Part shown: positions 3,275-49,535 of the stretch, one piece after another
Layout: every line of letters starts with the position of its first letter
Position numbering within the stretch: the first letter of the stretch is position 1
Assembly (NCBI GenBank): GCA_965214705.1
Contig: CBDCCI010000002.1
Coordinates: 2,848,001-2,912,000 of the forward strand
Direction: 5' to 3'
Length of the DNA: 64,000 nt
Origin: Alphaproteobacteria bacterium
Lineage (GTDB): Bacteria > Pseudomonadota > Alphaproteobacteria > UBA828
Translations under genes and position numbers: made by a program
Notes under the pieces: generated by a model
Database searches by the model: none
What the model was told of the DNA's origin: nothing
Seen by the model: only the letters and a program-made list of their open reading frames with translations

Positions 3275-3329
3275 CATGGCGCGATCCTCACACCGACGCC
3301 GCACCCCGAGCACCGCACCATGGTCCGGG
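3275..3329 (-). promoter_or_regulatory. Conserved box CCCGGACCATGGTGCGGTGC, N20, GAGGAT, N6, ATG (copy C)
   Basis: 20-mer at 3310-3329 is identical to copies at 41455-41474 and 49516-49535, with the same spacing to a -10-like hexamer and ATG. Confidence 0.7.
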
Positions 3330-3369
3330 GTTTCTTCCCGGCAACGAACGAGGAATTGATCATGAGGGG

Positions 3370-3501
3370 CCGGACCGCGAAAGCGGCCCGGCCCGCGCGA
3401 CTGCGCGCCGCGCCGAATGGCGCGTAAGCCAAGCGAACGGAGTTCGCGCCCGGCGATTGAGGGAAATGAACAAGTCAGCCCGGACGGCGCGACAGCGCCG
3501 C
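3370..3501 (+). repeat. Dispersed GC-rich repeat family 2 (ending GCGCCCGGCGAYTGAGGGAAATGAA)
   Basis: Aligns by eye to reverse complement of 7993-8158; sub-motif GCCCGGACGGCGCGACWGCGC also at 17135 and 55107. Confidence 0.7.
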
Positions 3502-3530
3502 TTCTTTTCTCGTCATGCCCGGACTTGTTC

Positions 3531-4789
3531 CACTGCTGTCCGGTTTAGCTTGGGTAGACAAGGTGCATGGCTTGGATTCAACTTGGTTTTTGCAAGACCT
3601 GTTGAATCGAAGCTCGCAATGGAGCCCAAGCCATGCCCTACCAGGATACGGTTTTCGGCGAACTGATGAAGGCGTTTCCGCGCTGGCGCTTCGACAAGCT
3701 GGCAGAGCGCCACGGAGCGGACTACCGGGTCCGGCGCCTTTCGTCGTGGAGCCAGTTCCAGGCGATGGTGTTCGCCCAGCTGTCGGGCTCGCGCTCCTTG
3801 CGCGAGGCGGTCGGTGCGCTGGAACGCTTTCCGGGCGTCCACGCCCATCTGGGTCTGGCGCCGGTGCGGCGGTCTACGCTCGCGGATGCCAACCGGGTAC
3901 GTCCGGCGGCCCTGTTCGAGGACGTGCTGGAAGCCCTGGTCGCCCGGCTGGGCGCATCTGCGGGCCAGCGCGGGCGGGAGATGCTGCGCCTCGTCGATGC
4001 GACCCGGGTCCTGGTTGGCAAGCGGATCGAGAGCTGGGAGGCCGACGGTGCCGTCAAGCTGCACGTGGTCTACGACCCGGACGCAGATGCGCCTGTCTGC
4101 TTTGCCGTGACCTCGGCCAGGGTCAACGACATCACGCCGGCCAAGCGCCTCCCCATCGAGCCCGGCGCGACTTACGTCTTCGACAGAGGCTATTACGACT
4201 TCACCTTCTGGGCAGACATCGACGCCAAGGGGAGCCGCTTCGTCACCCGCCTGAAGAAGAACTCGCCCACAAGCCTGATCGAGACCCGCCCGGTCAAGCC
4301 GGACGGCCCGGTCGTGGCCGACCGCGTCGCCTTGCTGTCGAAGCGCCTGGCGGCGAGCCGCAAGAACCCCTTCGACAAGCCGGTGCGTCTGGTCGACGTG
4401 CGCATCGACAGCGGCAGGGAGATCACGCTGGTCAGCAACGACCTCAATGCCCCGGCCGAAGAGATCGCGGCGCTCTACAAGCAGCGCTGGCAGGTCGAGC
4501 TGTTCTTCAAGTGGATCAAGCAGAACCTCAAGATCAGACACTTCCTCGGCACCAGCGAAAATGCCGTGCGCATCCAGATCGTCACCGCGCTGATCGCCTA
4601 CCTGCTGCTGCGGCTGGCGCAGATCGGAACCGGAACCGGGCTCGGCCTCCAGGCCATCGCCCGCCTCGTCGCCAAGACGACCTTCCAACGCCGGGCCCTC
4701 ACCGACCTCTTCGAACCACCGCCTGACACACCGCAAGCCCATGACCAGCTCCAAATCCCCTTCGCCAAAATCTAAACCGGACAGCAATG
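3531..4789 (+). mobile_element. IS4-family insertion sequence inserted in a REP hairpin
   Basis: 18-bp IRs CACTGCTGTCCGGTTTAG / CTAAACCGGACAGCAATG (17/18); 9-bp TSD GACTTGTTC at 3522-3530 and 4790-4798. Confidence 0.92.
3633..4775 (+). CDS. IS4-family DDE transposase
   Basis: VDAT, FDRGYYD, YKQRWQVELFFKWIKQNL (YREK) motifs. Confidence 0.95.
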   Translation: MPYQDTVFGELMKAFPRWRFDKLAERHGADYRVRRLSSWSQFQAMVFAQLSGSRSLREAVGALERFPGVHAHLGLAPVRRSTLADANRVRPAALFEDVLEALVARLGASAGQRGREMLRLVDATRVLVGKRIESWEADGAVKLHVVYDPDADAPVCFAVTSARVNDITPAKRLPIEPGATYVFDRGYYDFTFWADIDAKGSRFVTRLKKNSPTSLIETRPVKPDGPVVADRVALLSKRLAASRKNPFDKPVRLVDVRIDSGREITLVSNDLNAPAEEIAALYKQRWQVELFFKWIKQNLKIRHFLGTSENAVRIQIVTALIAYLLLRLAQIGTGTGLGLQAIARLVAKTTFQRRALTDLFEPPPDTPQAHDQLQIPFAKI

Positions 4790-4840
4790 GACTTGTTCCG
4801 GGCATCTCTCTCCACAACACACTGTAAAAAAACCGAAAAA

Positions 4841-4872
4841 CGTGGATGGCCGGGACAAGCCCGGCCATGACG
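4841..4872 (-). repeat. CGTC-tagged REP-like palindrome; inverted partner of the IS-split copy at 3511-3530/4799-4806
   Basis: CGTGGATGGCCGGGACAAGCCCGGCCATGACG. Confidence 0.8.
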
Positions 4873-4943
4873 GGTGTGGGGGCGCTGCGCGCTTGAGTGG
4901 CAACGTCTCGAACGAGACTCGCGCCCGCACCGCGCCCTGTTTT

Positions 4944-4983
4944 CGTCATTCCCGGACTCGTTCCGGGTATCCGGGCATCCATG
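4944..4983 (+). repeat. CGTC-tagged REP-like palindrome downstream of GIY-YIG gene
   Basis: CGTCATTCCCGGACTCGTTCCGGGTATCCGGGCATCCATG. Confidence 0.75.
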
Positions 4984-4994
4984 TTCCCGCAGGC

Positions 4995-5288
4995 TTACGG
5001 CAGGGTTTCGTAGAGGTCGTCCCAACCGGGGTTCTGGGCGACGATGAGATTGACCTTCCAGGCGCGCGGCCAGTGCTTCATGGTCCGTTCCCGCTGGATG
5101 GCCGAGGCAATGTCCTCGTGGCGCTCCGCGTAGACGAGCCGCGTCAGTCCGTAACGCTTGGTGAACCCCTCGACCAGGCCCTCACGGTGTTCCCACGCCC
5201 TGCGCACAATGTCGCTGGTGACGCCGAGATAGAGCGTGCCGTTGGGTCGGTTGGTCATGATGTAGACCCAGCCTCCGCGCTCTCTCAT
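4995..5288 (-). CDS. Small GIY-YIG nuclease family protein
   Basis: GWVYIMTNRPNGTLYLGVTSDIVRRAWEH...FTKRYG...AIQRE...KHWPRAWK. Confidence 0.9.
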   Translation of the reverse strand: MRERGGWVYIMTNRPNGTLYLGVTSDIVRRAWEHREGLVEGFTKRYGLTRLVYAERHEDIASAIQRERTMKHWPRAWKVNLIVAQNPGWDDLYETLP

Positions 5289-5306
5289 GTCCCCATGCTG
5301 CAATCT

Positions 5307-5355
5307 GTGGATGCCCGGAACACCCCCGGACTTGATCCAGGGGCCAGGCATGACG
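5307..5355 (-). repeat. CGTC-tagged REP-like palindrome with nested hairpin, upstream of GIY-YIG gene
   Basis: GTGGATGCCCGGAACA-CCCCCGGACTTGATCCAGGGG-CCAGGCATGACG. Confidence 0.75.
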
Positions 5356-5381
5356 ACTTGGGGGAATGGCCCGGTCTCGGC

Positions 5382-5655
5382 TCAGGACTCCACGCCACGC
5401 CCGGCCGTCGGCTCGTGATCGAACTGCGCGGCATCGGCCGGCGGTTCGGCAAATCCGATCGTCCCAATCTCCACTTCGAAATGGTCCTCCACGGCAATCG
5501 CTTGACCACCCAGACGCTTGCGACGCTCGTACTCATCGACCCGGAGGATCACAAGCTTGCCCCTGCGCTGTTGCAGACTTGCCAGCGGGATTTCACTGCT
5601 CCCTCCTGATCCTATCCTCGATCTCGCCGAATGCCCGTGGACAAATTCGCTGCAT
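5382..5655 (-). pseudogene. Degenerate Phd/YefM-like antitoxin
   Basis: MQRICPRAFGEIEDRIRREQ* continues in another frame as KLVILRVDEYERRKRLGGQAIAVED...AEPPADAAQFDHE. Confidence 0.45.
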
Positions 5656-5778
5656 TGCTCTTGTTTCGGGCTGTATGGTCCCCATCATGCATATTGTCAA
5701 ACGCGCAGCCCGCCATAGTTTGTGAACAGCTCCAAGGCGTGCCCCCTCCTCTATCCATACTAAGTAAAGGTTGCTCTT

Positions 5779-6656
5779 ATGACAGAACGACTGTTGAACA
5801 TATTCATATACGGAAATAACACTCACGTGCACTCAATGGGATATTGCGCATATGAGAAAACAGGGAGTTACGATGAACTGACAGAATATCTTCGATCTAG
5901 AGTCACTGTCGACCACAAACACGTGGCACGAATCAAGTTTAAGGAACCGATAGAGCGTCAAGAATTTTACGCGATGGAACGCTTGGGCGCAGTTACCAAT
6001 ACATTAGGGAGCCAGGGAGTAATATCAGAAGATACTATCTATTGCATTACCCAGATTGTAGATGGAAAAGTTAACGTGGACGAAATTGTCGACACCCTCT
6101 CTTCAGCCGGAGTACCAGACTATTTGTTGATGTATACGACCGAAAACAAGTTTGATTTCCCCGTCTGCTTGAAGATGACTACTTTTCAGCCATTAAGCTA
6201 CTATGGAATGCAGAAAAGTACATTGCGAGCTTGAAACTACTATTCTCCGCCATAGATACGATAGGGTTTATTGAATATGGCCCAAGGAATAATTGTTTTG
6301 TGTTGTGGCTCGAGCAATATTGTGACTTAAGTTCTCTTGACGTCTCTTCTCAAGAGATATGGGAATTACGAAACTCACTACTGCACATGACTAATCTAGA
6401 GTCTCACAAGGTTAGGAAAGGTAGTTCATATAGGCTAGTTCCGTCAATTGTTTCTCCTGACATTGATGTCCCTCCACGGCGTGAAAACGAAAAGTATCTC
6501 CACGTTGCTCGGTTCCTAATGAGAGTGCTTCCCACCGGAGTGCAGAAATGGTTAGAGACATATGACAACGAACGGGAGAAAATCTATACATTTGTTGAAA
6601 GGTACGACACCATTGTCTCGGATGTTAGACTGGTGCGCGGTGCGTTACATCAATGA
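5779..6656 (+). pseudogene. AT-rich hypothetical gene with HEPN-like RxxxxH motif, split by a -1 frameshift near 6156-6162
   Basis: ORFs 5779-6234 and 6231-6656 join as KFDFP/RLLEDDYFSAIKLLWNAEKYIASLKLLF; motif ELRNSLLH. Confidence 0.6.
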
Positions 6657-6820
6657 GTATGCGGAGGCGAATCTATCTGATCGTACAGAGGTGGTGTTTG
6701 TACAGATTGGGTAACTGCCAGACACTGTCCCCCTTCCCACCGCTCCCCCATGCTATGGTCACCGCCAGCCACCGTGGGAGCGTAGAGAACGTTAGGAAAG
6801 CGAAAGGGGTTAGCGACGAA

Positions 6821-7992
<1,172 letters not shown>

Positions 7993-7993
<1 letters not shown>

Positions 7994-8158
7994 GCTTTTT
8001 CATTTCCCTCAGTCGGCGAGCGCCGGTCTAAGCATTTCCCTCAGTCGCCGGGCGCTCGCTCCGCTCGATCGTGCGCTCCGCGCGCGTGGACGCGCGACGC
8101 TACGAGCCTTACAGCGCGGCGCGCGGTCGCGCGCTCCGGCCCGCTTCGCGGCCCGGTC
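7993..8158 (-). repeat. Dispersed repeat family 2 copy between convergent genes
   Basis: Internal duplication CATTTCCCTCAGTCG x2; homologous to 3370-3474; segment shared with 58065-58097. Confidence 0.7.
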
Positions 8159-9821
8159 CGCTATTGTCCAGCACCTCGGGCGCGTCGGAGCGTTCGACGA
8201 AGGCGAAGCCCGCGTATCCCTTCGCCACGACCTCGTCGCACTTGCGCACGTAGTCCGGGAAGCCGATGTAGGGCATGAAGACGGGCGCCTTGCCCGGAAT
8301 GTTCGAGCCGATGTACCAGGACTTGGTTTTGGTATAGAGCGTGGCGTCGGCCACCTCGTTGACGTGAGCGACCCACGCGTCCTCAGCCTCCACCGTCGCC
8401 TCGACGCAGGCGTAACCGTGCTCGCGCATGTAGCCGATGCAGTCGGCGATCCATTCGACGTTCTGCTCGATGGACTGGACCATGTTGCTCAGCACCGACG
8501 GGCTGCCCGGCCCGGCGATGATGTGGAGGTTGGGGAAGCCCGCCGTCGCGACGCCGAGCAGGCTTCTCGGACCCTCCTTCCACTTCTCGGCCAGCGAGCG
8601 GCCGCCGATGCCGCGAATGTCGATGCGGGTCAGCGGGCCGGTCATGGCGTCGAACCCGGTGGCGAAGATCAGCGCGTCGAACTCGTAAGCGCGGTCGCCC
8701 ACCCTGAGGCCGGCGCGGGTGATCTCCCCGATGGGCGTCTCGCTGACGTCGACGAGGGTGACGTTGTCCCGGTTGTAGGTCGCGTAGTAGTCGGTGTCGA
8801 CGCAGGTCCGCTTGCAGCCGATGTGGTAGTGGGGCGAGAGCAGCTCCGCTACCGCCGGGTCGCGCACCGTCTCGCGAATCTTGGCGCGGACGAACTCGGC
8901 CGCCGTGTCGTTGGCCTCCGCGGTCGCGAAGAGATCGGAGAACGCGCCCAGGAAGCCGATGCCGCAGGTCCGCCAGCGCTCTTCGTAGACGGCGTCGCGC
9001 TCCTCAGGCCCGACCTCGAACACGCCGCTCTCGCCGACCGTGAAATCGATGCCCGAGCGGTTCTGCCGCGCCCGCGCCCGCAGGCCCGCGTAGTCCGCCT
9101 TGACCGCCTTCTGCGCCTCGGGGTCAAGCGGCGCGTTGAAGGCGGGAACGCTGTAGTTCGGCGTGCGCTGGAAGACGTAGAGACGCTCCGCCTGCTCGGC
9201 GATGAGCGGAATGCACTGGATGGCCGAGGAGCCGGTGCCGATGATGCCCACCCGCCGGCCCGAAAAGTCGACCTCTTCCTCGGGCCAGTCTCCGGTGTGG
9301 TAGGTCGCGCCGGCGAATGAGTCGATGCCCTCGAAGTCCGGGATGTTGCGCGCGGACAGACAACCGCTCGCCATGATGCAGTGGGTCGCCGTCACGCGCG
9401 CGCCGTCGTCGGTCCCGACCGCCCAATGCCCGGCCGCCTTGTCGAAGGTCGCGGCGGTGACGCGGGTGTCGAAGCGGATGTCGCGGCGGAGGTCGAACCG
9501 GTCCGCGACGTGGTTGAGGTAGCGCAGAATTTCCGGCTGGGTGGCGTAGCGCTCGGTCCACTCCCACTCCTGCTGCAGCGCGTCGTCGAACTGGTAGGAA
9601 TACTCCATGCTCTCGACGTCGCAGCGCGCACCGGGATAGCGGTTCCAGAACCAGGTGCCGCCGACGCCGCTCCCGATCTCGAAGACCCGCGCGCTCAGCC
9701 CCATGCTGCGCAGCCGGTGGAGCGAGTAGAGTCCGGCGAAACCGGCGCCGACGATCACGGCATCGAAATCGCAGGCCGGCGCATCGATCCCGCCCGGCCG
9801 TTCCGCTTGCGGGTCAGGCAC
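8109..9821 (-). CDS. Baeyer-Villiger monooxygenase (cyclohexanone monooxygenase-like)
   Basis: GAGFAG, GGTWFWNRYPGARCD, FAGATYHTGDW fingerprint, GTGSSA. Confidence 0.93.
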   Translation of the reverse strand: MPDPQAERPGGIDAPACDFDAVIVGAGFAGLYSLHRLRSMGLSARVFEIGSGVGGTWFWNRYPGARCDVESMEYSYQFDDALQQEWEWTERYATQPEILRYLNHVADRFDLRRDIRFDTRVTAATFDKAAGHWAVGTDDGARVTATHCIMASGCLSARNIPDFEGIDSFAGATYHTGDWPEEEVDFSGRRVGIIGTGSSAIQCIPLIAEQAERLYVFQRTPNYSVPAFNAPLDPEAQKAVKADYAGLRARARQNRSGIDFTVGESGVFEVGPEERDAVYEERWRTCGIGFLGAFSDLFATAEANDTAAEFVRAKIRETVRDPAVAELLSPHYHIGCKRTCVDTDYYATYNRDNVTLVDVSETPIGEITRAGLRVGDRAYEFDALIFATGFDAMTGPLTRIDIRGIGGRSLAEKWKEGPRSLLGVATAGFPNLHIIAGPGSPSVLSNMVQSIEQNVEWIADCIGYMREHGYACVEATVEAEDAWVAHVNEVADATLYTKTKSWYIGSNIPGKAPVFMPYIGFPDYVRKCDEVVAKGYAGFAFVERSDAPEVLDNSGPGREAGRSARPRAAL

Positions 9822-9901
9822 GGAGGCCCCCGTCCGCTATGGCGCCGGGCGAAGGGTCCGACGCCGCATTCGCCGATGTCAAGCGGTCGCGCACCGGGCC
9901 A

Positions 9902-11895: not shown

Positions 11896-11912
11896 GATCT
11901 GTCCCGCCCCCC

Positions 11913-37524: not shown

Positions 37525-38145
37525 ATGTTCTACGAGACCGCGCGCAACGATCACGGCCTGCCGCACGACCCCTTCAAGTCCTGCGTGGTGCCGCGCCCGA
37601 TCGGCTGGATCACCACGATCGATATGGCCGGCGGGCTCAACCTCGCGCCCTTCAGCTACTTCAACGCCTGCGGCGACCACCCGCCGCAGGTGATGTACGC
37701 GCCGAGCGGGCCGCACGCGGCCGAAGGCGGCGCCAAGGACAGCCTGCACAACGTGCAGGAGACCGGCGAGTTCGTCGCCAACTTAGCCACCTGGGAGCAG
37801 CGCGAGGCGATGCGCTTCTCGTCGAGCGGGGTGCCGAGCAGCGTCGACGAGTTCGCGCTGACCGGGCTCCAGACCGAGCCCGCGCGGCTGGTGCGCCCGC
37901 CCAGGGTCAAGGGCGCGCCGATCCACCTCGAATGCCGGCTCCACAAGGTGATCGAGCTGCTGGCCGACAACCCTGCGCGCTTCCGCAACTGGCTCGTGCT
38001 GGGCGAGGTGGTCGGCGTTCACATCGATGACGCGATCATCACCGACGGGCGCGTGGACCAGTCGAAGTTCCGGCCCATCGCGCGGCTCGGCTACGCCGAC
38101 TACACTACGGTGGACAGCCACTTCGAGATGCCCTTCCCGGACTAA
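37525..38145 (+). CDS. Flavin reductase family protein
   Basis: VVPRPIGWITT, NLAPFSYFN, KDS, ETGEFV. Confidence 0.88.
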   Translation: MFYETARNDHGLPHDPFKSCVVPRPIGWITTIDMAGGLNLAPFSYFNACGDHPPQVMYAPSGPHAAEGGAKDSLHNVQETGEFVANLATWEQREAMRFSSSGVPSSVDEFALTGLQTEPARLVRPPRVKGAPIHLECRLHKVIELLADNPARFRNWLVLGEVVGVHIDDAIITDGRVDQSKFRPIARLGYADYTTVDSHFEMPFPD

Positions 38146-38184
38146 GGCGAGACGCCGGGTTTCGGGTTGGGGCTGAGTGAGCGG

Positions 38185-38348
38185 CTATAGAGCGAGCGTC
38201 GCGGTCTCGGCTCGCACGCCGCTTTTGACCACAGACCGGATCATGTCGGCGGTCTCGCCGAGCCCGAAATTCAGGCCGGGCATTCGGTTGGAGGTCATTG
38301 TACTGGCGGCTCCTATCGCTACTCCATTGCTTTATGGTGAACATAGCA
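38185..38348 (-). pseudogene. Duplicated 5' fragment of ivd with its promoter
   Basis: [21 protein letters not shown] (20/21 aa identical to 6821 gene), stop after 37 codons; shared TGCTATGKTCACC upstream. Confidence 0.85.
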
Positions 38349-38445
38349 CAACTCTAGGGCAGAGGTGCCGGTGACTATGATCAAGAAGCATACTTCTCGC
38401 TCAACAGTTCAAGACGGCCCAGCTACTATCCTTTCTCCACTCCAC

Positions 38446-41139
38446 CTAAATCGTTTGCTCAACGCCGCGGCCGTCTAAAACATTATCAAAGTCATTTAGA
38501 GCCTCTTGAAGATCCCAATGGGCTCTTAACTGGTGCTGTTTAGCGATTACCACATTTGAGATAAGCCGATGTTGTTCGTCGGGATTCAGTGGAAAAGCAA
38601 TCTCCAATTCTTCAAAATCCTGAACTTGAGTACGTCTTCGATTACTGTGTCCCGTTGTGATTGCTCGAAATGCACGTTGATAATATCTACTCCTCAAAAG
38701 CACTTGCAGAAAGGCTGGCTCTAGTCGACTATCAATTACTGAATAGATTGGAAATTCCTTGGAAACCAAGGCGCCGTCAAACTCACTAGGAACCAAAGCA
38801 ATGCAGCCCTTCCAAAGATCAATTGAAGAGAATACCACGTCCCCCTCATGGGCCACATACCACGTGCCGGGGCTCTCCCGGAAATATTCCGCGCGCCATT
38901 CTGGTGGATTTCGACCTTTTCCAGCCTCCCGTGGGCGAATATCCCCTGTTTGACCAATTGTCATAACCGTATATAATTCATCCGCCTCATTTGAGAAAAC
39001 TGCGCGTTCCTCTTGTCTTTGCAAAACATCTCCGAGTCTTCTTATTATCCACCCCTCTGGAACAATAGGACTGCCGTAATATTTGAAGAGGTGATATTTG
39101 GGATCCAAGCGATGGCTCCCATGGCTCTCCCAAACCTCTTCAAATGGTAGCGCTGCACAGTCGGGCTCCACGTGCCCCCTGTAAGTATCGGGTGCGCTTG
39201 CAAATCGTCTCCATTCACCGAGTATTGAGCCCTCTTGATCATTCCCCAATACATGGGCGCCGTCACTTTGGTACAAGTCGTTTCTGGAACTCGGCGCTCC
39301 CGCTGGCGTGTAACCAACCTCAGCTGCCTCACCCAGGAAGGTCCTATAGCAGAGTCTGGCCTCGCGAATTGCCGCTCCAATGACTCCTAAATGGTCCTCT
39401 CCAGCCTGCACCAGGCGATTAATAGCACGATCAAAAACTCGCTTTTCGGCGAGGGTAAATTTTTGGAAGAAAAGGATTGAAGTCTTGTTTTGTGCGCCGG
39501 ATTTGCGAAACGCGTGGTCTGGAAGGGAAATAATGGCCGTAACCCTGCCCCGAGACGCAATAAAGGACCGTGTACGCGGACAATTTGACCGATCCCCCTG
39601 ATTGTTAAGCAGACCATCCGGTACGATCAGTTCGAGACGTCCTCCCGGCTCCAAAAATTCAATACATCTTTCCAACACAACTTGCTCTGAGTCAATCTTT
39701 CGGATTCCTGCAGCAACTGCAAAATTCTCAAGAGTATTTTGCCCGAGTTGTTCGTCATCTCCCTCCGAGATATCAGTGCCAAAAGGCGGATTTCCAACAA
39801 TGACCGTAAACTTTTCTCTAGGAGGGTTTAGCCGAGCGTTAGCGAACACCGCGTCCAGGACTGAGCGATTGGCCTCAATGTTGGAATGCCCGTCATGGTG
39901 AAGAAGAAGAAGATTTATTTTACAAATCCGCGCCAGAATTTCATGAATTTCAATGCCATAGACCTGGGTCATTGCAAAATCATACTTTATGCGATGAACC
40001 TGGTCTGATGGCTGGCCAAGAAAGGCACGATCAATACGATGCCAAACTTGAAGTAAGCATTCCAAAAGAAAGCCCCCGCTACCGGCCGTTGGGTCTAACA
40101 CGAAATCGCTATGGTTAATATCCAACATAGAAATCACGAAACGTGCAAGTTGTCGCATTGTGAAGTATTGGCCAAGGCCCCCTCGGAAAATCGAGCCGAA
40201 GAACTGTTCGAAGGCTTTTCCTACACTGTCGACGTCGGTTCGCGTAAAGGCTACACCCTCAAGGGTGCTAACTATCGATGAAATTTTTGCATCGGGAAGA
40301 CTAATGCGAGAATCCACCGGGAATATGGTGGGATCAGTTTCACAGGCTTGTGAAAACAGTGAGTGCACTCGTGTAGCAACAGTCGCGGTCGTTTCTTTGG
40401 TTCCGACCTGAAAGCGGCGGGGTTCGTTGGAGCTGGTGGTTCTCTCATCAATGACCTTGGCAAAGAGAAGTTTGCTCCATTCGTCAAATGCAGTAAGTGG
40501 ATCACGTCTGCCTCCGGCCCAAATGAGGGAATGTGTCTGGCGAATTTTGGCCTCCAATTGAGAAGCTTCAAGGGGGGCGATGTCGTTGGGCTGGCCAGCA
40601 AGGAAGGTGTAGACGGGAATGTTGCCGTATTCGCGCGGCAGTCTGTCTCGGTCGCCAAGTCGGTTTGTAACGCGTTCTGTAGATGGGTAGTTCGCTACAT
40701 CAAAAAAGGCGCTGCAGGTTCCCTCGTCATAAAGAGTAAAGTCGGCTCGCAAAGAGTTGGCGTTTCCAAATGCTTGTTCTATGCCCTGCTCGCGATCAGC
40801 ATCGCTTTGTTCAGCTGCTTTGTTTTCAACAACAATGTATGGTTCGCGACAATGATCGTCATTGTATACTACAATATCGGCAAAGTCGGATGGAGTCCGG
40901 CGCGGCACGGACACTTCAAGTTTAATTCTATTTGCCGGATACCCTTTGTCCACTATTAGCCATGAAACTGTCGTGGACCTCACCCACTCTTCGGGGTCGT
41001 TCCAGTTGTAGGATTGCTCCTTTGCCAATACATATTTTACACGCTGGTTATCAATGAGAAGGATTCCACGACGGATCGCTTCATGAACCGCCGGTTGGGT
41101 CAGGGCATCTTCCGGACTATCAAGTCTGGATATAGGCAT
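38446..41139 (-). CDS. Single-chain restriction-modification enzyme (HsdR-N-like nuclease, N6-adenine MTase, TRD)
   Basis: PEEWVR, ADIVVY...VENK; GQYFT, DPTAGSGGFL, NPPF; C-terminal HsdS-like region; AT-rich. Confidence 0.85.
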   Translation of the reverse strand: MPISRLDSPEDALTQPAVHEAIRRGILLIDNQRVKYVLAKEQSYNWNDPEEWVRSTTVSWLIVDKGYPANRIKLEVSVPRRTPSDFADIVVYNDDHCREPYIVVENKAAEQSDADREQGIEQAFGNANSLRADFTLYDEGTCSAFFDVANYPSTERVTNRLGDRDRLPREYGNIPVYTFLAGQPNDIAPLEASQLEAKIRQTHSLIWAGGRRDPLTAFDEWSKLLFAKVIDERTTSSNEPRRFQVGTKETTATVATRVHSLFSQACETDPTIFPVDSRISLPDAKISSIVSTLEGVAFTRTDVDSVGKAFEQFFGSIFRGGLGQYFTMRQLARFVISMLDINHSDFVLDPTAGSGGFLLECLLQVWHRIDRAFLGQPSDQVHRIKYDFAMTQVYGIEIHEILARICKINLLLLHHDGHSNIEANRSVLDAVFANARLNPPREKFTVIVGNPPFGTDISEGDDEQLGQNTLENFAVAAGIRKIDSEQVVLERCIEFLEPGGRLELIVPDGLLNNQGDRSNCPRTRSFIASRGRVTAIISLPDHAFRKSGAQNKTSILFFQKFTLAEKRVFDRAINRLVQAGEDHLGVIGAAIREARLCYRTFLGEAAEVGYTPAGAPSSRNDLYQSDGAHVLGNDQEGSILGEWRRFASAPDTYRGHVEPDCAALPFEEVWESHGSHRLDPKYHLFKYYGSPIVPEGWIIRRLGDVLQRQEERAVFSNEADELYTVMTIGQTGDIRPREAGKGRNPPEWRAEYFRESPGTWYVAHEGDVVFSSIDLWKGCIALVPSEFDGALVSKEFPIYSVIDSRLEPAFLQVLLRSRYYQRAFRAITTGHSNRRRTQVQDFEELEIAFPLNPDEQHRLISNVVIAKQHQLRAHWDLQEALNDFDNVLDGRGVEQTI

Positions 41140-41142
41140 CTG

Positions 41143-41385
41143 CTAACTCCAGGAAGCAACCGCAGCGTTGCGAGGATTGACCTTGATCGAGATAAACCGC
41201 GAGCCAGCAATCTTATCGACCAATATTACTTCCAGCTTGACGGTAGAGCCCACCACGCTCGGGAGGTGCGCGGGCGGCGTGTGAAGTGACTGCTTCCCGG
41301 CCGCGCCGCCCGACGCACGTACCATACGGAGCTCACGGAAATACGTCTCGACCGCCGCGCGCAGTTTCTTGTTTGTTCCGCTCAT
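41143..41385 (-). pseudogene. Degenerate N-terminal fragment of a type IIG-like RM gene
   Basis: MSGTNKKLRAAVETYFRELRMVRASGGAAG resembles N-termini of large RM fusion proteins, then decays. Confidence 0.45.
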
Positions 41386-41454
41386 TGCGCCCTTATCGCC
41401 GACGACGGTCTATCGTTCAAGGCCTGCGGCCCAGTCGCGGATGGTTGAGCGTCG

Positions 41455-41494
41455 CCCGGACCATGGTGCGGTGCACGACGCGCCGGGGCCGTGA
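41455..41494 (+). promoter_or_regulatory. Conserved box plus N20 (copy B); its CAGGAT-N6-ATG lies beyond the IS at 43659-43673
   Basis: Identical 20-mer; removing IS1634 and one TSD copy restores exact spacing. Confidence 0.7.
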
Positions 41495-43654
41495 CCCAAG
41501 TTGGCACTTTTTCCGACCAGCCGAGCCTGTTCGAGCTAGTTTTGCGGCGCTGAACCACTAGATGTTGGGGTTGGAGGACACCTGAGACCCACATTTGCCA
41601 TTCGTGGTCCTGGAAGCCAATTGTGGGGCCAGGACTTTGGAGTTGAGTCGATATCCCTCTTGCCAGATGCCGCGAACGCCGTGTATGCGAAACAGGCATC
41701 GCAGAAACGGCGCCGCCATGTACATCAAGGCAACCAGGACACACACCGACAAGGCCGGCCAGCCGGTCCGAAGCCATCGCCTCGTGCTCGCCCAGCGCGT
41801 CGGCGACAAGGTGCGCCACAGGACGCTGCTCAATCTCGGCACCGACTATCCGGTGCCGCGCGAGAAGTGGAAGGCCGTCACCGAACTCGCCGAGGCGCTG
41901 CTTCACGGCAAGCCGCCGCTGTTCGAGGGCGAGGCGGATGTGCGGGCCGCAGCCGAGGACATCGTCGCCAAGCTCAGGGCCAGGGGGTTCCGCGTCGAGG
42001 CGATGCAGGAAGAGGCGCGCAAGCCCGACATCGCCACCGTCGACCTCGATACCCTGGAGCACGAGAACCCGCGCACGGTCGGCTGCGAGCGCCTGTGCCT
42101 CAAGGCCCTCGACGCCCTCGGCTTCGCCGAAATCCTCCACGGCCTCGACATCAAGGGCCGCGACGGGCGCATCGCCAGCGCGCTGATCGTCGCCAGGATG
42201 GTCCATCCCGCCAGCGAGCGTGATACCAGCCGCTGGCTCCGCCACGACAGCGCGGCCGCCGAGCTCCTGGGCCTGGAGGGCGACCGCAAGGCGCTGCGGC
42301 GCAAGACGCTCTACCGCATCGGCGACCTGCTCTGGCGCCACCGCGCCGCCATCCAGCGGGAGCTGTTCAACCGTGAGCGCGCACTGCTCGACCTGCCCGA
42401 GACGATCGCCTTCTACGATCTCACCAACGTCCACTACCACGGCCACACGGGCGGCGAGCTTCCCAGGTTCGGGCGCTCCAAGCAGAAGCGCGACGACTGT
42501 CCCCTCATCACGCTGGCGCTGGCGCTCGACGGCGCGGGCTTCCCGCGCAGTTGCGAGATCCTGCCGGGCAACGTGAGCGAGCCGGGCACGCTGCACGAGG
42601 CGCTGGCGCGGCTCGAGGCGGTGTGCGGCGGCACGGCGCCGAAGCCCACGGTGGTCATGGACGCGGGCATCGCCACCGAGAAAAACATCGCGTGGCTGGG
42701 CGAGCAGGGCTACGACTGGATCGCGGTCAGCCGCGGTGCCAGGCCTGCGCCGCCCGAGGGCGGACCCGAGGCCCTGCTGATCACCAGCGCGCGCCACGAG
42801 GTGCGGGCCTGGCGGCTTGCCAGCGAGGACGGCGAGGCGCGGCTCTACGTCGTCAGCGAGGGCAAGAAGAAGGCCGAGAACGCGATCATCGGCCTGAGGC
42901 GGAACCGCTTCGAGGCGGCGCTGGAAAGGCTCCACGGCGGCCTCCCGGTCAAGGGCCGCCTCAAGCGCTACGACAAGGTGCTGGAGAGCATAGGCCGCCT
43001 CAAGCAGCGCTTCTCCGCCGTCGCCAGGCACTACGAGATCACGGTCGAGAGGGCGAAAACCGGCCCCAATGCCACCGCCGTGCGCTTCAAGCGCAGGCCG
43101 CGATACGACGAGGCCGATGAGGGCGCCGGTGCCTATGTGCTGCGCACCAGCCACGTCGACTGGGACATCGAGACGGTCCTGCGGACGTACTGGCGGATCA
43201 CGGATATCGAGGCGACATTCCGGAGCCTGAAATCCGAGCTCGGCCTTCGCCCGATCTGGCACCAGCTCGACCGGCGCATCGCGGCCCACCTGCTGATCGC
43301 CGTGCTGGCCTACCACGCCGTGCATCTGATCCGTACCCGGCTGGCCGCGCGCGGCATCCACAAGTGCTGGGCGTCGATCCGCGAGAGCATGCGGACCTGG
43401 GTGCGGATCACCACGCGCCTGCGCCAGACCGACGGCACCTTGATCGTCAACCGCCAGGACACGCGCCCGGCCGCCGAGGTTGCCGCAATCTCCTCGGCGG
43501 CGGGCGTGGACCCCGCCATCCACCGCACGAGGACCCGTCTGATGAGCTGACAGAATCTCACAAAATGTGGGGCCATGTTGGAATCGACCGAGAAAAATAT
43601 CGCGTTGAATCAAACCAATAGGGAACACAGGCAGCGGAAAAGTGCCAACTTGGG
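41495..43654 (+). mobile_element. IS1634-family element (copy 2, diverged from copy 1)
   Basis: 17-bp perfect IRs CCCAAGTTGGCACTTTT; 4-bp TSD GTGA (41491-41494, 43655-43658). Confidence 0.92.
41718..43550 (+). CDS. IS1634-family transposase
   Basis: FYDLTNV, GRSKQKRDD, MDAGI, IEATFRSLKSELGLRPIWH. Confidence 0.92.
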   Translation: MYIKATRTHTDKAGQPVRSHRLVLAQRVGDKVRHRTLLNLGTDYPVPREKWKAVTELAEALLHGKPPLFEGEADVRAAAEDIVAKLRARGFRVEAMQEEARKPDIATVDLDTLEHENPRTVGCERLCLKALDALGFAEILHGLDIKGRDGRIASALIVARMVHPASERDTSRWLRHDSAAAELLGLEGDRKALRRKTLYRIGDLLWRHRAAIQRELFNRERALLDLPETIAFYDLTNVHYHGHTGGELPRFGRSKQKRDDCPLITLALALDGAGFPRSCEILPGNVSEPGTLHEALARLEAVCGGTAPKPTVVMDAGIATEKNIAWLGEQGYDWIAVSRGARPAPPEGGPEALLITSARHEVRAWRLASEDGEARLYVVSEGKKKAENAIIGLRRNRFEAALERLHGGLPVKGRLKRYDKVLESIGRLKQRFSAVARHYEITVERAKTGPNATAVRFKRRPRYDEADEGAGAYVLRTSHVDWDIETVLRTYWRITDIEATFRSLKSELGLRPIWHQLDRRIAAHLLIAVLAYHAVHLIRTRLAARGIHKCWASIRESMRTWVRITTRLRQTDGTLIVNRQDTRPAAEVAAISSAAGVDPAIHRTRTRLMS

Positions 43655-43712
43655 GTGACAGGATCCCGCCATGCGGTGGGCGAGCGAATGGGTCGCAGCC
43701 GGTGGGGTTATA

Positions 43713-43760
43713 TGGATGCGCGGATGCCCGGAACGAGTCCGGGCATGTCCGCGCATGACG
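43713..43760 (-). repeat. CGTC-tagged REP with nested hairpin
   Basis: TGGATGCGCGGA-TGCCCGGAACGAGTCCGGGCA-TGTCCGCGCATGACG. Confidence 0.75.
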
Positions 43761-43886
43761 GGATGGGGCATCGCGTGCGACGGATGTTGCGGGGCACGAC
43801 GCAATGTCCACACGCGTTGGGTGCGCGATGACGAGAACGTCGGGCGGGCACTTGGGCGACTCTCGGGCAGAAAACGTTGCTGTGGA

Positions 43887-43953
43887 ATCCCGCTTATCTC
43901 ACTTAATCCCACTTTATCCCGGAGAATCCCACCCAATCCCGGCGCATCCCGCA
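43887..43953 (+). repeat. Seven ATCYC motifs phased at about 10 bp
   Basis: ATCYC at 43887, 43896, 43906, 43916, 43926, 43936, 43946. Confidence 0.85.
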
Positions 43954-44020
43954 TGAAATTAAGTTGTCGCATCCCGCTTTCGTCACGGGGCGTTCTTTCG
44001 GCCCACCCGTTCTCCCACAT

Positions 44021-44228
44021 CGTCATGCCCGCACTTGTTGCGGGCATCCACGCGTTTTTCTGAGTACGGCGGGTTTTGCTGAGGAAGATGGCTCGATACA
44101 CGGAACGAGTGGGGGCAAGTCCAGGCTTGACGCGAGAACACCGTGCAAGCGTGCGCGACTCCTCTTGTGCGCGCGAGACCTTTCAGGCTCGCGCGACGTG
44201 GATGGCCGGAACAAGTCCGGCCATGACG
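44021..44228. repeat. Inverted pair of CGTC-tagged REPs (44021-44052 and 44197-44228)
   Basis: CGTCATGCCCGCACTTGTTGCGGGCATCCACG ... CGTGGATGGCCGGAACAAGTCCGGCCATGACG. Confidence 0.8.
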
Positions 44229-44268
44229 AAAAAGAGTATTGGTCCCGCCCTAGCCGAGACTGCAGGCC

Positions 44269-46263: not shown

Positions 46264-46484
46264 CGCCCTTCGCCTCCCTGGCGTGCCGCTCTGGCCCCGG
46301 CGCATTGTTCACGACTGTGCTTCGGCGCGCCACCCCAAGTCTTAAGGCCGCACGCTCCTCCCCTCTGCTGCCAGTTCACTGTCGTCCGGACGGAACGAAA
46401 TGATTTGACCGGCGTGCCCGGCATTCGAAGGATCGACGCCCGCGACGCCTTGCCGCGCGCGAGAGGTGCGATGGACCGGATGCC

Positions 46485-47720
46485 GTGATCGCTCAGGCCA
46501 TACTGCGGAGGCCGCCGGCGTTGATCGCCGTGATGTGCCTCGCCGAGGTGCTCGCGATGACCGGCTTCGCGGCCTACTGGTCGCTGCTGCCGGTGCTCCA
46601 GGCCGAGTGGCACATGAGCAACGCCATGGCCGGCTGGCTCTCGGGCGCGTTCTTCGGCGGTTACGTCCTGGTGGTCGCGTTTCTGACCGCGATGACGGAC
46701 CGGGTCGATGCCCGCTACGTCTTCATCCTGGGTGCGGCGCTGTCTGCCGCCGGTCTGGTCGGGCTGGCGCTGCTGGCGACGGGATTCTGGTCGGCTCTGC
46801 CGTGGCGCGTGATCGCGGGCGCAGGCCTCGCTGGCACCTACATGCCGGGCCTCAAGGTGCTCACCGACCGCCTGCCGCAAGAACGACAGGCACGCGCGGT
46901 GGCCTTCTACACGTCCTCCTTCAGCATCGGCACGGCGGTGTCCTATTCCCTCGCGGGCGGCGCGCTGGAGTGGTTCGGCTGGCGCGGCGCCCTGCTGTTC
47001 ACGGCCGCCGGCCCGGTCCTTGCCGGCATCGCGCTTGCGACGATCGTCGCACCGCGGCAGCCGGAAGCGGCCGCCGAGGAACGCGGCCACGTGCTCGACT
47101 TCCGCCCGGTGCTGCGCTCGCGGGAGACCATGGCCTACATCATGGCCTACGCCGGCCACGGGGCCGAGCTCTTCGCCATGCGCTCCTGGATCGTGCCCTT
47201 CCTGGTGTTCTGCCTGGGCAGCGGCAGCGGACGCGAGCTCAACGCCACGCTCTTCGCCACGGCGATCGCCCTCGTCGCGGTGGTGTCGAGCATCGGCGGA
47301 GCGGAGCTTGCGTTGCGCATCGGCCGCGTGCGTCTGCTCACCTGGGTAATGCTGGCGACCTTCGCGATCAGCGTCGCGGTCGGCTTTTCCTCGCCGCTTC
47401 CCTTCGCCGTGGTGGTGGTGCTTTGCCTGATTTATTCTGCCGCGATTCAGGCCGATTCTGCGGCGCTTACCGCCGGTGCCGTCGCTACCTCGCCGGTGGG
47501 TCATCGCGGCGCGACGCTGGCGGTGCATTCGACGCTGGGGTTCGGTGGCTCGCTGTTCGCGCCGGCGCTTGTGGGCGTGGTGCTCGACGTTGCCGCGCCA
47601 CTGGGCGGCACGACCGCATGGGGTCTCGCTTTCCTTTCAATGGGATCGATGGCGCTGCTCGGCTACGTTTTTTTCCTGCTGGTACGCCGACGCCCGGCTC
47701 ACGGGCCGACTTTGGGATAG
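46485..47720 (+). CDS. MFS transporter
   Basis: About 12 hydrophobic segments; TDRVDAR loop motif. Confidence 0.87.
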   Translation: MIAQAILRRPPALIAVMCLAEVLAMTGFAAYWSLLPVLQAEWHMSNAMAGWLSGAFFGGYVLVVAFLTAMTDRVDARYVFILGAALSAAGLVGLALLATGFWSALPWRVIAGAGLAGTYMPGLKVLTDRLPQERQARAVAFYTSSFSIGTAVSYSLAGGALEWFGWRGALLFTAAGPVLAGIALATIVAPRQPEAAAEERGHVLDFRPVLRSRETMAYIMAYAGHGAELFAMRSWIVPFLVFCLGSGSGRELNATLFATAIALVAVVSSIGGAELALRIGRVRLLTWVMLATFAISVAVGFSSPLPFAVVVVLCLIYSAAIQADSAALTAGAVATSPVGHRGATLAVHSTLGFGGSLFAPALVGVVLDVAAPLGGTTAWGLAFLSMGSMALLGYVFFLLVRRRPAHGPTLG

Positions 47721-48035
47721 ACGGCGACCGAACGCGCCGCTCCAATCCGAACCAAGATTTCGCGAGGGTGTGAGGCACTATGTCGATTTGGACATACCAT
47801 TTTATCTGTTCTATATGGCTTATTTACATGATAATGGAGTGTTCTGCCGCCGGTATCCCTGTCCTCGCTGGGCCGGTCGCAGCGTAGTCGCGGCGCCGCG
47901 TCCGATCCCGGGCCGGCGGCGGACAAGGCCCCGGTGCCGCTGGCGGCCACTGTTTGCCTCCTGGGCTCTCGGCGGTCCGGTGGCGCCGGGGCCGGCTTTA
48001 CTTGCCGGAGACATGGACCGCGCCCGCGACTCCGC

Positions 48036-48422
48036 TCAGGCGCCCCCTCCCAGCAGATGTGCGTTGATCTGGTCGAGCTGCTTGTCGAGGCCGGCGATCA
48101 TCTTGTCCATGCCATCGAGGGTCGCGCGGAGCGCCGCGATCTCCCCCTGAACCGCCGTGACCGAGCGTCCGAGAGTTGCGAACTCGCGGGCGTCGGGAAG
48201 GGATTCGAGCGCCGTGGAAAGCTTGACCAGGCCGCGCTCGACGGTCTCCATGCGCGCGCCCAGGGCGCCGACGCCGGTGTCGCGCCTCTCCAGGTCGCTG
48301 ACGCTCTTGGTGGTAACGGCACCGGCGGATTCGAGCCGGCGCACGCGCACGAAGAGACCGACGCAGGCGCCGACGATGGCGCCGACCACGCCGCGCGCGA
48401 CCCACGTCTCGAGATCGCTCAT
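48036..48422 (-). CDS. Mu-like phage membrane-anchored coiled-coil protein (DUF2730-like)
   Basis: N-terminal TM, LESLPD motif, coiled coil; last gene of lysis-like cassette. Confidence 0.55.
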   Translation of the reverse strand: MSDLETWVARGVVGAIVGACVGLFVRVRRLESAGAVTTKSVSDLERRDTGVGALGARMETVERGLVKLSTALESLPDAREFATLGRSVTAVQGEIAALRATLDGMDKMIAGLDKQLDQINAHLLGGGA

Positions 48423-48949
48423 CGACCGGCCGCCCCGCCCTCGCGCGAACGCCGCTTCTCGATCTGACGGGCGCCGAACCACCAGAGCATCGCGGCGGTG
48501 AAGAGATAGAGCACGGTCTCGACGATGCGGGGCCGGAGGCTTACGGCTGCGAGATCGGAAGCGCCGAGCAGGAAGTAGATCGCGCCCACGAGAGCGAAGA
48601 GGCTCCAGGTGAGCGCCGGCCGCGTGAGGCCCCGCACCACGTCGACGAGCTGCATGGCCCAGCCCTCGCCGGGCTTGGACCAGCGCCGGGCGGCCTCCCG
48701 GTAGGAAGCCTCCATGGCCTCCCACTCGGCCCGCTCGCGGGTGGCCTGAGCCTCGATGGCGGCATGCGCCGCAGCGCCCTCCGCCTCGGCCTTGGCGAGC
48801 TCGATGTCGAGACGGCGCAGATCCAGCTCCTGGGCGTGCCGCTGGCGCGACTGGAAGAAGTCGACCACGGCCGACAGCGCCGTGCCGAGCAGCCCGGTCG
48901 CGCCGCCGGTGAGTACCGAGACGCCGAAGTTGAAAAGCGTTTCAAGCAT
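48419..48949 (-). CDS. Holin-like membrane protein (3-TM type)
   Basis: GGATGLLG N-terminus; VRGLTRPALTW and WWFGAR motifs. Confidence 0.6.
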   Translation of the reverse strand: MLETLFNFGVSVLTGGATGLLGTALSAVVDFFQSRQRHAQELDLRRLDIELAKAEAEGAAAHAAIEAQATRERAEWEAMEASYREAARRWSKPGEGWAMQLVDVVRGLTRPALTWSLFALVGAIYFLLGASDLAAVSLRPRIVETVLYLFTAAMLWWFGARQIEKRRSREGGAAGR

Positions 48950-48994
48950 GGGACTCTCCTATGCGCCCTACCGCTTCAATACTTGAGGGCGCGT

Positions 48995-49483
48995 TCATTC
49001 CGTTCGCCCTATTGCTGGGCTCGTTTGCCGCGCGCCTACCGGCGCGACGCTTGAGGGCGGGTTGATCTCCAGTTCGAAGGGTTGGTCCGCGGCCCAGTCC
49101 ATGAGGTGACGGAAGGCCGTGCGCGAGGCGAGCACCGCCGCCTGCTGGCGCCCCTTCACGCTCAACCGCCCCCGGCGGAGACCGGGCAGCAGGCAGCCCT
49201 GGGTGTGGGTATGCCAGCCGCGCTCCACGTCGCCGCCGAGGTTGCCGGCATGGAAGAGGATGTGGCTGCGGCCCGGCACCTGAGTCACCAGCAGGCAGCG
49301 CCGGTGGCGCGGCGAAAGGTGCGGCACAACATCGTAGAGCCCAGCCGGGATGCAGGAGCGGTTGCGCCGGTTGCCGCGCCAGGGCGGCTCCATGATCCAG
49401 GTGGGCGAGAGGCCGGGGCCGCTCAGGACCCCGACGGTGCCCTGGTCGCTTTCGTGCCGCCGTGTGAGGATCGCCCGTTGCAT
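48995..49483 (-). CDS. DUF5675-like phage protein (putative endolysin/L,D-peptidase fold)
   Basis: EPPW...SCIPAGLY, VPGRSHILFHAGN, TQGCLLPG. Confidence 0.7.
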   Translation of the reverse strand: MQRAILTRRHESDQGTVGVLSGPGLSPTWIMEPPWRGNRRNRSCIPAGLYDVVPHLSPRHRRCLLVTQVPGRSHILFHAGNLGGDVERGWHTHTQGCLLPGLRRGRLSVKGRQQAAVLASRTAFRHLMDWAADQPFELEINPPSSVAPVGARQTSPAIGRTE

Positions 49484-49535
49484 GGGGCGATCATGGCGGG
49501 GCGGGCCCCGCCCGTGCACCGCACCATGGTCCGGG
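49481..49535 (-). promoter_or_regulatory. Putative activator-dependent late promoter of lysis cassette (copy A): box, N20, CATGAT, N6, ATG
   Basis: Imperfect dyad CCGGACCATGGTGCGG upstream of a -10-like hexamer, no obvious -35, no RBS. Confidence 0.7.

Follow-up and report, generated by a model that had tools for sequence, protein, structure and literature searches.

A repeated box in an alphaproteobacterial genus with the form of a Mor-type phage operator: probable leaderless promoters heading lysis-like, terminase and gp27 genes

The subject of this analysis is a 20-nucleotide (nt) sequence, CCCGGACCATGGTGCGGTGC, and the short module behind it in a stretch of 64,000 nt from an alphaproteobacterial genome (Alphaproteobacteria bacterium, lineage UBA828; assembly GCA_965214705.1, contig CBDCCI010000002.1, positions 2,848,001 to 2,912,000 of the forward strand). 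The 20-mer is called the box, and the whole stretch is called the window. A preliminary description had pointed to three exact copies of the box, each followed by 20 variable nucleotides (N20), a hexamer, six further nucleotides (N6) and an ATG, and had proposed that they form the scattered regulon of a phage-derived activator of the Mor/C type. The copies do lie where it placed them, at 3310-3329 on the minus strand (copy A), 41455-41474 on the plus strand (copy B) and 49516-49535 on the minus strand (copy C), and no further match with up to three mismatches occurs in the window. Chance would give about 0.04 matches, and a count of three was reached in none of 100 shuffles. The features of the three copies, one of which is split by an insertion sequence (IS), are as follows.

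3275..3329, minus strand: promoter module of copy A (box 3329-3310, N20 3309-3290, GAGGAT 3289-3284, N6 3283-3278, ATG 3277-3275)
3090..3274, minus strand: relic behind copy A (55-codon non-coding remnant, class-1 repeat array, AT-rich end)
41455..41494, plus strand: left part of copy B (box 41455-41474, N20 41475-41494)
41495..43654, plus strand: IS inside copy B (2160 bp, inverted ends, 4-bp duplication GTGA)
43659..43673, plus strand: right part of copy B (CAGGAT 43659-43664, N6, ATG 43671-43673)
43887..43975, plus strand: class-2 repeat array of copy B (ATCCCRC-type units of ~10 nt) with its AT-rich end
49481..49535, minus strand: promoter module of copy C (box 49535-49516, N20 49515-49496, CATGAT 49495-49490, N6 49489-49484, ATG 49483-49481, the last being the start codon of a DUF5675 gene)

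The spacing is exact in copies A and C as read. In copy B it emerges once the IS, which carries a 651-amino-acid (aa) DDE_Tnp_1 transposase (41595-43550), is removed, and the IS-free orthologue in the congener G017 reads box-N20-CAGGAT-N6-ATG without interruption. The ATG of copy C opens the DUF5675 gene (Pfam E value 1.5e-24, match from residue 6), which is followed by a gene for a membrane protein. It is this copy that heads the lysis-like genes; the preliminary description, in which the labels were mixed up, gave them to copy A, and its statement that a Mor-like gene lies about 3 kb away holds for copy C but not for copy A. Copies A and B head no gene; both are relics of a cassette with a gp27-like gene, each with a trailing repeat array. 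The remnant behind copy A begins MxCE..., resembling the N-termini of the gp27 proteins of type 3, its class-1 array consists of ~11-nt repeats at 3096-3186, and the relic sits upstream of pyrB (1981-2964).

The window belongs to a 7.92-Mb genome in three contigs (G000), where the box is found 10 times exactly and 39 times with up to two mismatches, against none for the backwards control. A profile of the box plus 45 nt recovers 50 copies. The comparison set comprised 40 other genomes, namely 20 congeners, four genomes of the same family, five of the same order and 11 of the same class. Between 9 and 69 box matches per genome were found in 17 of the 20 congeners, and none in the 20 genomes of other genera. 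What had been taken for three loci is a repeat family that spans the genus and has about 50 copies in this genome alone. No Rfam family was found at the box in 15 loci (E ≤ 1), blastn with a gp27 cassette as the query found nothing in plasmid and phage collections, and no printed description of the repeat was found in the literature searched.

The preliminary description had feared an abundant repeat with random spacing. Abundant the repeat is, but its spacing is largely constant: the ATG stands 31-33 nt past the box in 46 of the 50 copies and exactly 32 nt past it in 40. Positions within the module are counted here from the -10 hexamer and a putative +1 at the A of the ATG. The hexamer follows CAnnAT, with A-11 present in 45 of 46 copies and T-7 in 44 of 46, and with variable middle bases; A-11 and T-7 are the most important bases of sigma-70 -10 elements. 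A scan for the box (up to six substitutions) followed by A-11, T-7 and the ATG gives 50 matches in the genome and none in the reversed genome. The box spans -52 to -33 and holds a 16-bp imperfect dyad, composed of CCGGACCA and TGGTGCGG and centred at -43.5, and the -35 position reads TGCACG, a poor -35 element. In phage Mu, Mor and C bind a 16-bp imperfect dyad centred at -43.5, the dyad of C overlaps -35, and the promoter Plys needs -52 to -34 (PMC4390567; PMC2582627). With the putative +1, the module shares with these promoters the position of the dyad and a recognisable -10 element combined with a poor -35. The comparison supports a Mor/C operator as regards both where the box lies and how it is built.

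At the single orthologous locus of the DUF5675 gene, the box, the -10 element and the ATG are kept across seven species. There, a 19-mer of the box is identical in six of the seven and the N20 differs in every species. Since the -10 element ends six bases before the start codon, without room for a ribosome-binding site, the simplest reading is that the mRNA from the module would be leaderless.

The real genes behind the boxes are few and coherent: the lysis-like pair, the large terminase (TerL), a portal and many small-terminase-like genes. All nine Phage_Mu_Gp27 matches of the genome, eight of them above the cut-off, lie directly downstream of a box, and the family match is clear (PF11985, E 1.4e-26; phrog_426 'terminase small subunit', E 4.6e-33). 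Six of these genes share a unit of about 1 kb that is ~90% identical between copies. Among the relatives, full-length gp27 matches were listed for G004, G009, G013, G008, G012 and G003 (40 loci), and a box was found 90-155 nt ahead of the Pfam match in 37 of the 40. The resulting set of 45 box-linked loci (eight own and 37 from relatives) has an ATG at the fixed offset in 42 cases, and this ATG is in frame with the gp27 match in 40 of the 42, where one third would be expected by chance. Open reading frames (ORFs) of more than 150 aa are obtained from 37 of the box-linked loci, and many of the proteins start at the box ATG (MQNET...). The comparison thus supports the ATG as a start codon that is probably in use and leaves no room for a leader.

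The box ahead of TerL is degenerate (four mismatches), and its ATG opens a reading frame of 458 aa with a coding-type GC content at third codon positions (GC3) of 0.87. A further box lies between TerL and a Mu-type portal gene and heads a short leader before the portal. The pair (G000 C3:1236980-1239784; L058:8980-11784) stands isolated among housekeeping genes, with a box ahead of each. Five other long ORFs at box ATGs were judged non-coding, with GC3 values of 0.56-0.74 against ~0.87 in real genes. The preliminary description had looked to the rest of the genome and to relatives for head, tail and terminase genes behind further boxes; TerL, the portal leader, gp27 and lysis-like genes were indeed found there, whereas the genome scan brought up no head or tail genes behind boxes.

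Three congeners carry Mu-like prophages, one of them with a MuA-type transposase, whose Mor homologues are 45-50% identical to the one in the window. In all three, a dyad xCGGACCATGGTCCGx starts 3-13 nt past the mor stop codon and is followed by N20 and then by CACAAT, TACCAT or CATGGT. In one prophage (L057), the genes behind the dyad encode a DUF5675 protein, a membrane protein, gp27 and TerL, while the other two have an SLT-type lysis gene ahead of gp27 and TerL. The middle promoter of Mu likewise lies within 77 nt after mor, in the same layout. Because the dyad follows mor and is itself followed by lysis genes, gp27 and TerL, the box appears to be a variant form of the operator that phages of this lineage have at their Mor-dependent promoter; this is the strongest support for the idea put forward in the preliminary description. 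The Mu-transpos_C matches in the window's own genome look like IS21-type transposases rather than a Mu transposase. The core GGACCATGGTCC of the prophage dyads also occurs in a paper on the SopB-bound sopC centromere of the F plasmid, probably by coincidence.

Copy C stands next to the region that encodes the proposed activator, with the following features.

48419..48949, minus strand: membrane protein, phrog_6637, 64% identical to the prophage gene adjoining DUF5675
48995..49483, minus strand: DUF5675 protein, phrog_1501, 75% identical to the gene after the Mor-box in prophage L057
49567..50217, minus strand: conserved ORF without a family match, syntenic in relatives
50115..51068, minus strand: repressor with a Peptidase_S24 domain (LexA/CI type)
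51017..51100, no strand: divergent early control region with four GTGCAY motifs (putative operators)
51056..51343, plus strand: small early ORF, phrog_7669, in the position of Mu ner
51366..51911, plus strand: Mu Gam-like protein
51908..52705, plus strand: Mu GemA-like protein, overlapping mor as in phage Mu
52698..53045, plus strand: Mor-family activator, 115 aa

The earlier assignment of the 52698-53045 protein as Mor-like is supported by matches to the family profiles. The gene is single-copy, syntenic and under purifying selection. Pfam PF08765 is matched with 28 bits against a cut-off of 24.9, over residues 11-43 only, and phrog_836 ('late transcriptional activator') with an E value of 6.7e-14 over residues 2-113. 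In an hhalign comparison, Mu Mor was matched with 89.6% probability over 57 columns that include the LGGxxVYxPR strand and the helix-turn-helix (HTH), and Mu C with 6% probability. The overlap of gemA and mor is the same as in Mu, where gemA occupies 8233-8784 and mor 8781-9170. Membership of the Mor family is thus supported by comparison at the sequence level. A ferritin-like gene comes after mor, and the gene order of the locus is identical in all six relatives fetched. The same modules occur in other orders in G003, G018 and G002, and the order in G003 is colinear with a phage: early genes, mor, ferritin, box, DUF5675, membrane protein, a gp27 fragment and TerL. The ratio of nonsynonymous to synonymous substitution rates (dN/dS), taken between the window's genome and five congeners, was 0.11-0.24 for Mor, 0.17-0.25 for the repressor, 0.05-0.19 for the membrane protein and 0.27-0.40 for DUF5675, compared with 0.07-0.14 for the neighbouring ferritin. 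The Mor gene of the window therefore lies in a syntenic Mu remnant under purifying selection.

As to the other genes of the locus, the true start of the repressor may be the ATG at 51017. The match that would make the 48419-48949 membrane protein a holin is weak, and no homologue of DUF5675 was found among solved structures. Other mobile DNA lies at 3633-4775, 53782-54906, 55336-56622 and 60201-62354, comprising two more DDE_Tnp_1 transposases, a P4-type integrase just past the ferritin gene and an IS66 set (TnpB and transposase). TerL lies 3.4-20 kb from Mor in 11 congeners and 1.66 Mb away in the window's genome, which has thus been rearranged; the breakpoint at which TerL was separated from Mor may lie at the IS and the integrase that follow the ferritin gene.

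Taken together, these findings make it probable that the box is the Mor-type operator of an activator-dependent, leaderless promoter that was inherited from a Mu-like phage. The resident Mor protein is the likely activator, possibly together with the Mor proteins of incoming phages. In the proposed mechanism, the S24 repressor (50115-51068) would hold the divergent early operon, consisting of the small ORF, Gam, GemA and Mor, switched off. Upon relief of repression, a Mor dimer would bind the 16-bp dyad centred at -43.5 and recruit sigma-70 RNA polymerase to the CAnnAT -10 element. Transcription would then start at the A of the ATG, seven bases further on, to give an mRNA without a leader. The Mor/C-type reading of the preliminary description is supported by the position and form of the box, the dyad after mor and the use of the ATG; the regulon of three sites is not supported. 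The putative promoter is the head of a genus-wide repeat family, and in this genome it precedes DUF5675 with the membrane protein, TerL, the portal leader and eight to nine gp27 genes.

The distribution of the parts within the genus follows that of the box. The gp27 family is present in the same 17 of 20 congeners, a Mor homologue in 15 and a TerL orthologue (78-97% identical) in 16, and the box, gp27, Mor and TerL are all missing from the three box-less genomes G011, G015 and G016, each of which is 100% complete. As the genomes are kin, this joint distribution is a pattern and not a statistical test.

A number of observations weigh against the probable role of the box as an operator of the resident Mor protein. 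The three box-less genomes may be one clade, in which case the co-occurrence reflects few independent events, and neither G001 (460 contigs, 92% complete) nor G007 (67% complete), both with boxes, yielded a Mor match. In G018, 25 boxes are accompanied by a Mor match that covers no more than residues 37-115. The copies share descent, so the conservation of spacing is partly inheritance and does not amount to 46 independent confirmations. The prophage dyads are symmetric, unlike the dyad of the dispersed copies, whose halves differ (GGACC / GCACC). In the prophages, the first gene does not begin at +1, and leaderlessness is therefore confined to the dispersed copies. When the whole genome was searched in six frames with the Pfam Mor profile, nothing was found at E ≤ 0.001, though the protein itself passes the cut-off. 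Comparison with the known Mor fold, an intertwined dimerisation domain with a C-terminal HTH, gave little: a profile search of solved structures matched Mu Mor (1rr7) weakly (E 0.41), Foldseek ranked 1rr7 fifth (E 0.84) for a model with a mean predicted local distance difference test score (pLDDT) of 85.5, and VIA-align returned generic HTH matches only, none with Z ≥ 5, in what was a comparison of a monomer model with a swapped dimer. RNA data came down to a single metatranscriptome run, which had a 0.10 share of words and was available as contigs only. Finally, the 3' part of the module, ATCGCGCCATG, is complementary to the right half of the box, which the promoter reading does not account for; it may reflect a third half-site.

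Some of these points lead to the alternative that the box is a protein-binding promoter element whose regulator is another protein than the resident Mor: the Mor of an infecting phage, with the box as a defence sensor or a means of hitch-hiking, the S24 repressor, or a gp27-like HTH protein. The use of a helper's late activator by satellites is known, the prophage Mor proteins adjoin near-identical dyads, and G018 keeps its boxes with a partial Mor match. The last bases of the box, GTGCAC, are similar to the four GTGCAY motifs of the repressor's control region; they fall at the -35 position, and the S24 repressor might therefore contact the box promoters directly. Such an alternative regulator is nevertheless rather unlikely, since the resident Mor is single-copy, under purifying selection and missing from the box-less genomes, no full box is present in the repressor's own control region, and the box is far from gp27 in the prophages. 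Dual control by resident and incoming Mor proteins would in any case be compatible with a Mor-type operator.

Given the complementarity of ATCGCGCCATG, the box and the ATG region might also be the two arms of a functional hairpin that spans about 55 nt and acts in single-stranded DNA or RNA, for example in attenuation, processing or recombination. Pairing is possible between CATGGTGCGGT, the core of the box, and ATCGCGCCATG, which holds the start codon, and 87.0% of the cells pair in 28 copies. Shuffled partners pair equally well, at 86.8%, and none of the 11 pairs has changed in both partners. Pairing is lost at two stem positions, in 8 and in 11 of the 28 copies, intact gp27 copies included, through changes on the 3' side only. 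The fold z-scores of four copies were -3.0, -1.4, -1.9 and -0.3, with z below -2 in 11 of 40 copies and a mean of -1.0 for the whole region, whereas the inner N20 shows no excess folding (mean z 0.02). In favour of the hairpin, integrases and an IS insert in or beside the box. The stem has no trailing U-run, the Rfam search cited above found no family, and the hairpin would not be in the RNA at all if transcription starts at the ATG. A functional hairpin is therefore highly improbable.

The operator and its promoter are part of a larger composite repeat. In most copies, a direct-repeat array follows 130-260 nt behind the box, and in the gp27 cassettes, which measure ~1.1 kb, it follows the gene. 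Class-1 arrays consist of GGCCACCTTG- and GGCCGGAATAG-type units of ~11 nt and class-2 arrays of ATCCCRC-type units of ~10 nt, and both end in an AT-rich stretch. In the genome, all 12 class-1 arrays of at least three units have a box upstream on the same strand, as do three of the four strict class-2 arrays, the fourth being copy B of the window, where the IS lies between. When 51 gp27 sequences were placed in a tree, the 45 that are linked to a box fell into a single clade, all with arrays, and the six box-less genes, three from the prophages and three that group with them, have none. The class-1 arrays match one divergent gp27 clade (2 of 2), which is a single change in the tree and weak evidence. 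For the dispersed gp27 genes, the median dN/dS was 0.55 over 325 pairs and 0.30-0.62 among the six own copies; they are moderately constrained. Because the short copies retain the first codons of type-3 gp27 genes (MQCES...), they are deletion relics of gp27 cassettes, of ~250 nt each, and number about 35-40 with copies A and B of the window included.

The composite repeat is polymorphic among relatives. An element of ~244 nt is present in G000 and G017 and missing from G014 at one orthologous site (L006). A second site, right after the stop codon of a conserved gene, has a class-1 element in G000, G017, G006 and G001, a class-2 element in G004, and no box element in G008, G014, G010, G007 and G019, where G008 has a terminator-like hairpin and the others have a different sequence or gene. 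Given these differences in presence and class, the elements were gained or lost independently. As to the exact ends of the element, the flank of L013 is an IS-like duplicate, L014 has the element in all relatives, the synteny of L026 differs, and L017 is full of repeats.

Being short, present in many copies and polymorphic at orthologous sites, the family behaves as a miniature inverted-repeat transposable element (MITE) or a repetitive extragenic palindrome (REP) does, and the box could be the mere conserved end of a mobile, non-coding repeat, identical between copies through youth and without a regulatory role. Its abundance here and in 17 of the 20 congeners, the common descent of the copies and the fact that the majority of them head no gene would all fit. 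What makes this account improbable is the pattern of conservation. The box, -10 element and ATG are kept across seven species at one locus while the N20 changes, only A-11 and T-7 are near-invariant within the -10 element, 40 of 42 loci have gp27 in frame with the ATG, and a related dyad occupies the position of the Mu middle promoter (Pm) in real prophages. No terminal inverted repeats were seen, no inverted copy of the array was found upstream, and no clear target duplication was seen, the single clean empty site (L006) being too diverged to show one. No element-encoded enzyme was found besides the gp27-like protein. A mobile element can, moreover, carry a working promoter, so that mobility and a Mor-type promoter are compatible.

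The arrays invite an interpretation of their own. They are missing from the 20-kb stretches of the three prophages, which speaks against their being the Mu ends or pac sites of these phages. The gp27 protein is annotated as the small terminase in phage Mu, and repeats one helical turn apart are typical of sites for a cooperatively bound small DNA-binding protein; for these two reasons, the arrays may be candidate gp27-binding sites. The dispersed gp27 genes are not directly upstream of a large terminase gene, as would be expected of a small terminase: they stand alone, each with an array after it, and TerL follows only the box-less prophage copies. A bolder and doubtful reading would be that the genus has kept the S24 repressor, Mor, the lysis pair and, for packaging, no more than the initiation parts (TerL, portal and many TerS-like gp27 genes) of an ancient Mu-like prophage and has placed them all under one leaderless Mor promoter, with the cassettes and relics as dispersed, self-spreading pac-like sites. 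Upon DNA damage or the arrival of a phage-borne Mor, gp27 proteins would occupy the arrays, and terminase would be brought to dozens of sites in the chromosome. The result might be the hitch-hiking of host DNA in helper capsids, a form of transduction that needs no capsid genes of its own, or the sabotage of the phage together with early lysis as a form of defence.

Several further repeats and insertions are found around the boxes, and the intergenic regions there collect several repeat families. A REP-like repeat, called U, of ~100 nt with a GC-rich hairpin (CCGGGC...GCCCGG) lies at 3340-3480 on the minus strand of the window and at 44 places in G000. It often flanks gp27 cassettes on one or both sides and is always co-oriented with them, upstream in 19 of 45 and downstream in 14 of 45. 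Short repeats resembling GGAACAAGTCCGGGCATGACG and TCGTCATGCCCGCACTTGTTGCGGGCATCCACG cluster round box elements, in the window at 3510-3530, 43727-43760, 44016-44056 and 44205-44232. The box is itself an insertion target, as seen in copy B; besides 41495-43654 of the window, insertions at a box are found at C2:394783, C1:2073833, C1:2685942 and C1:2728671 of G000 (L023 and others). Three copies elsewhere end at about position 19 of the box and continue into DNA of lower GC content, and at one of them a gene for a P4-type tyrosine integrase starts at once. Paralogues of this integrase, with 87-89% identity, were seen at a distance of 3 kb from another truncated box and of 200 nt from a half-box resembling the opposite junction. 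A tblastn search with one integrase gave well over 100 tyrosine-recombinase matches in G000, many of them in adjacent pairs or triplets. The window also has a low-GC island at 38000-42000 (51-56% compared with ~67%). It encodes a protein of 897 aa that has the appearance of a fused restriction-modification enzyme, its domains being N6_Mtase, HSDR_N_2 and Eco57I-type.

Activation of the Mor/C type is known from a few promoters, which lie within phage Mu. In the present case, that promoter design has apparently been multiplied to about 50 sites in the chromosome and retained throughout a genus, along with a resident Mor gene under selection. If this is true, a phage late-gene switch can turn into a host-wide regulatory and mobile module, and the boxes would offer a natural set of leaderless, activator-dependent promoters as well as a previously undescribed type of cassette, made up of a promoter, a small-terminase-like gene and a direct-repeat array. 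For annotation, the box family explains dozens of short 'hypothetical' ORFs and repeats in these genomes.

The system can be compared with four that are known. Correia elements of Neisseria, which are short, numerous between genes, polymorphic in their insertion and able to carry promoter elements, have terminal inverted repeats and a TA duplication. The box family is likewise short, abundant and insertion-polymorphic, but no such ends were found, its far end is a direct-repeat array, and it originates from a protein-coding cassette. Satellites of the type of Staphylococcus aureus pathogenicity islands (SaPI) and other phage-inducible chromosomal islands (PICI) carry their own small terminase and pac site. 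The gp27 cassette is alike in having a small-terminase-like gene under a putative helper-type late promoter beside a repeated DNA site, and no capsid genes were found behind the boxes; it differs in its length of only ~1.1 kb, in being without integrase, replication or excision genes, and in its many copies per genome.

The pyocin circuit of Pseudomonas aeruginosa is alike in logic. There, a LexA-like cleavable repressor, PrtR, controls a phage-derived activator, PrtN, that binds the conserved P boxes in the promoters of dispersed phage-derived genes, lysis genes included (PMC4684702). The activator family and the box are different, and pyocin loci are few and encode tail or toxin particles, whereas the boxes described here stand before TerS-like, TerL, portal and lysis genes and dozens of relics, with no particle genes found behind them. 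The fourth comparison is with the Mu promoters that depend on Mor or C (Pm, Plys, PI, PP and Pmom), which have the 16-bp imperfect dyad at -43.5 over a poor -35 and a recognisable -10 element. In both, the activator gene follows and overlaps gemA, and in the prophages of the congeners, the promoter right after mor would drive lysis and packaging genes. In contrast to Mu, the dyad sequence is another one, the putative +1 is at the A of the start codon, and no separate C gene was seen; Mu has five promoters in one phage, and here there are about 50 copies over three replicons, most of which head relics. To judge from the sequences compared, the box system thus appears to depart from both Mu and the pyocin circuit in being leaderless, in having been multiplied about fifty-fold, and in standing at the head of a cassette family with direct-repeat arrays.

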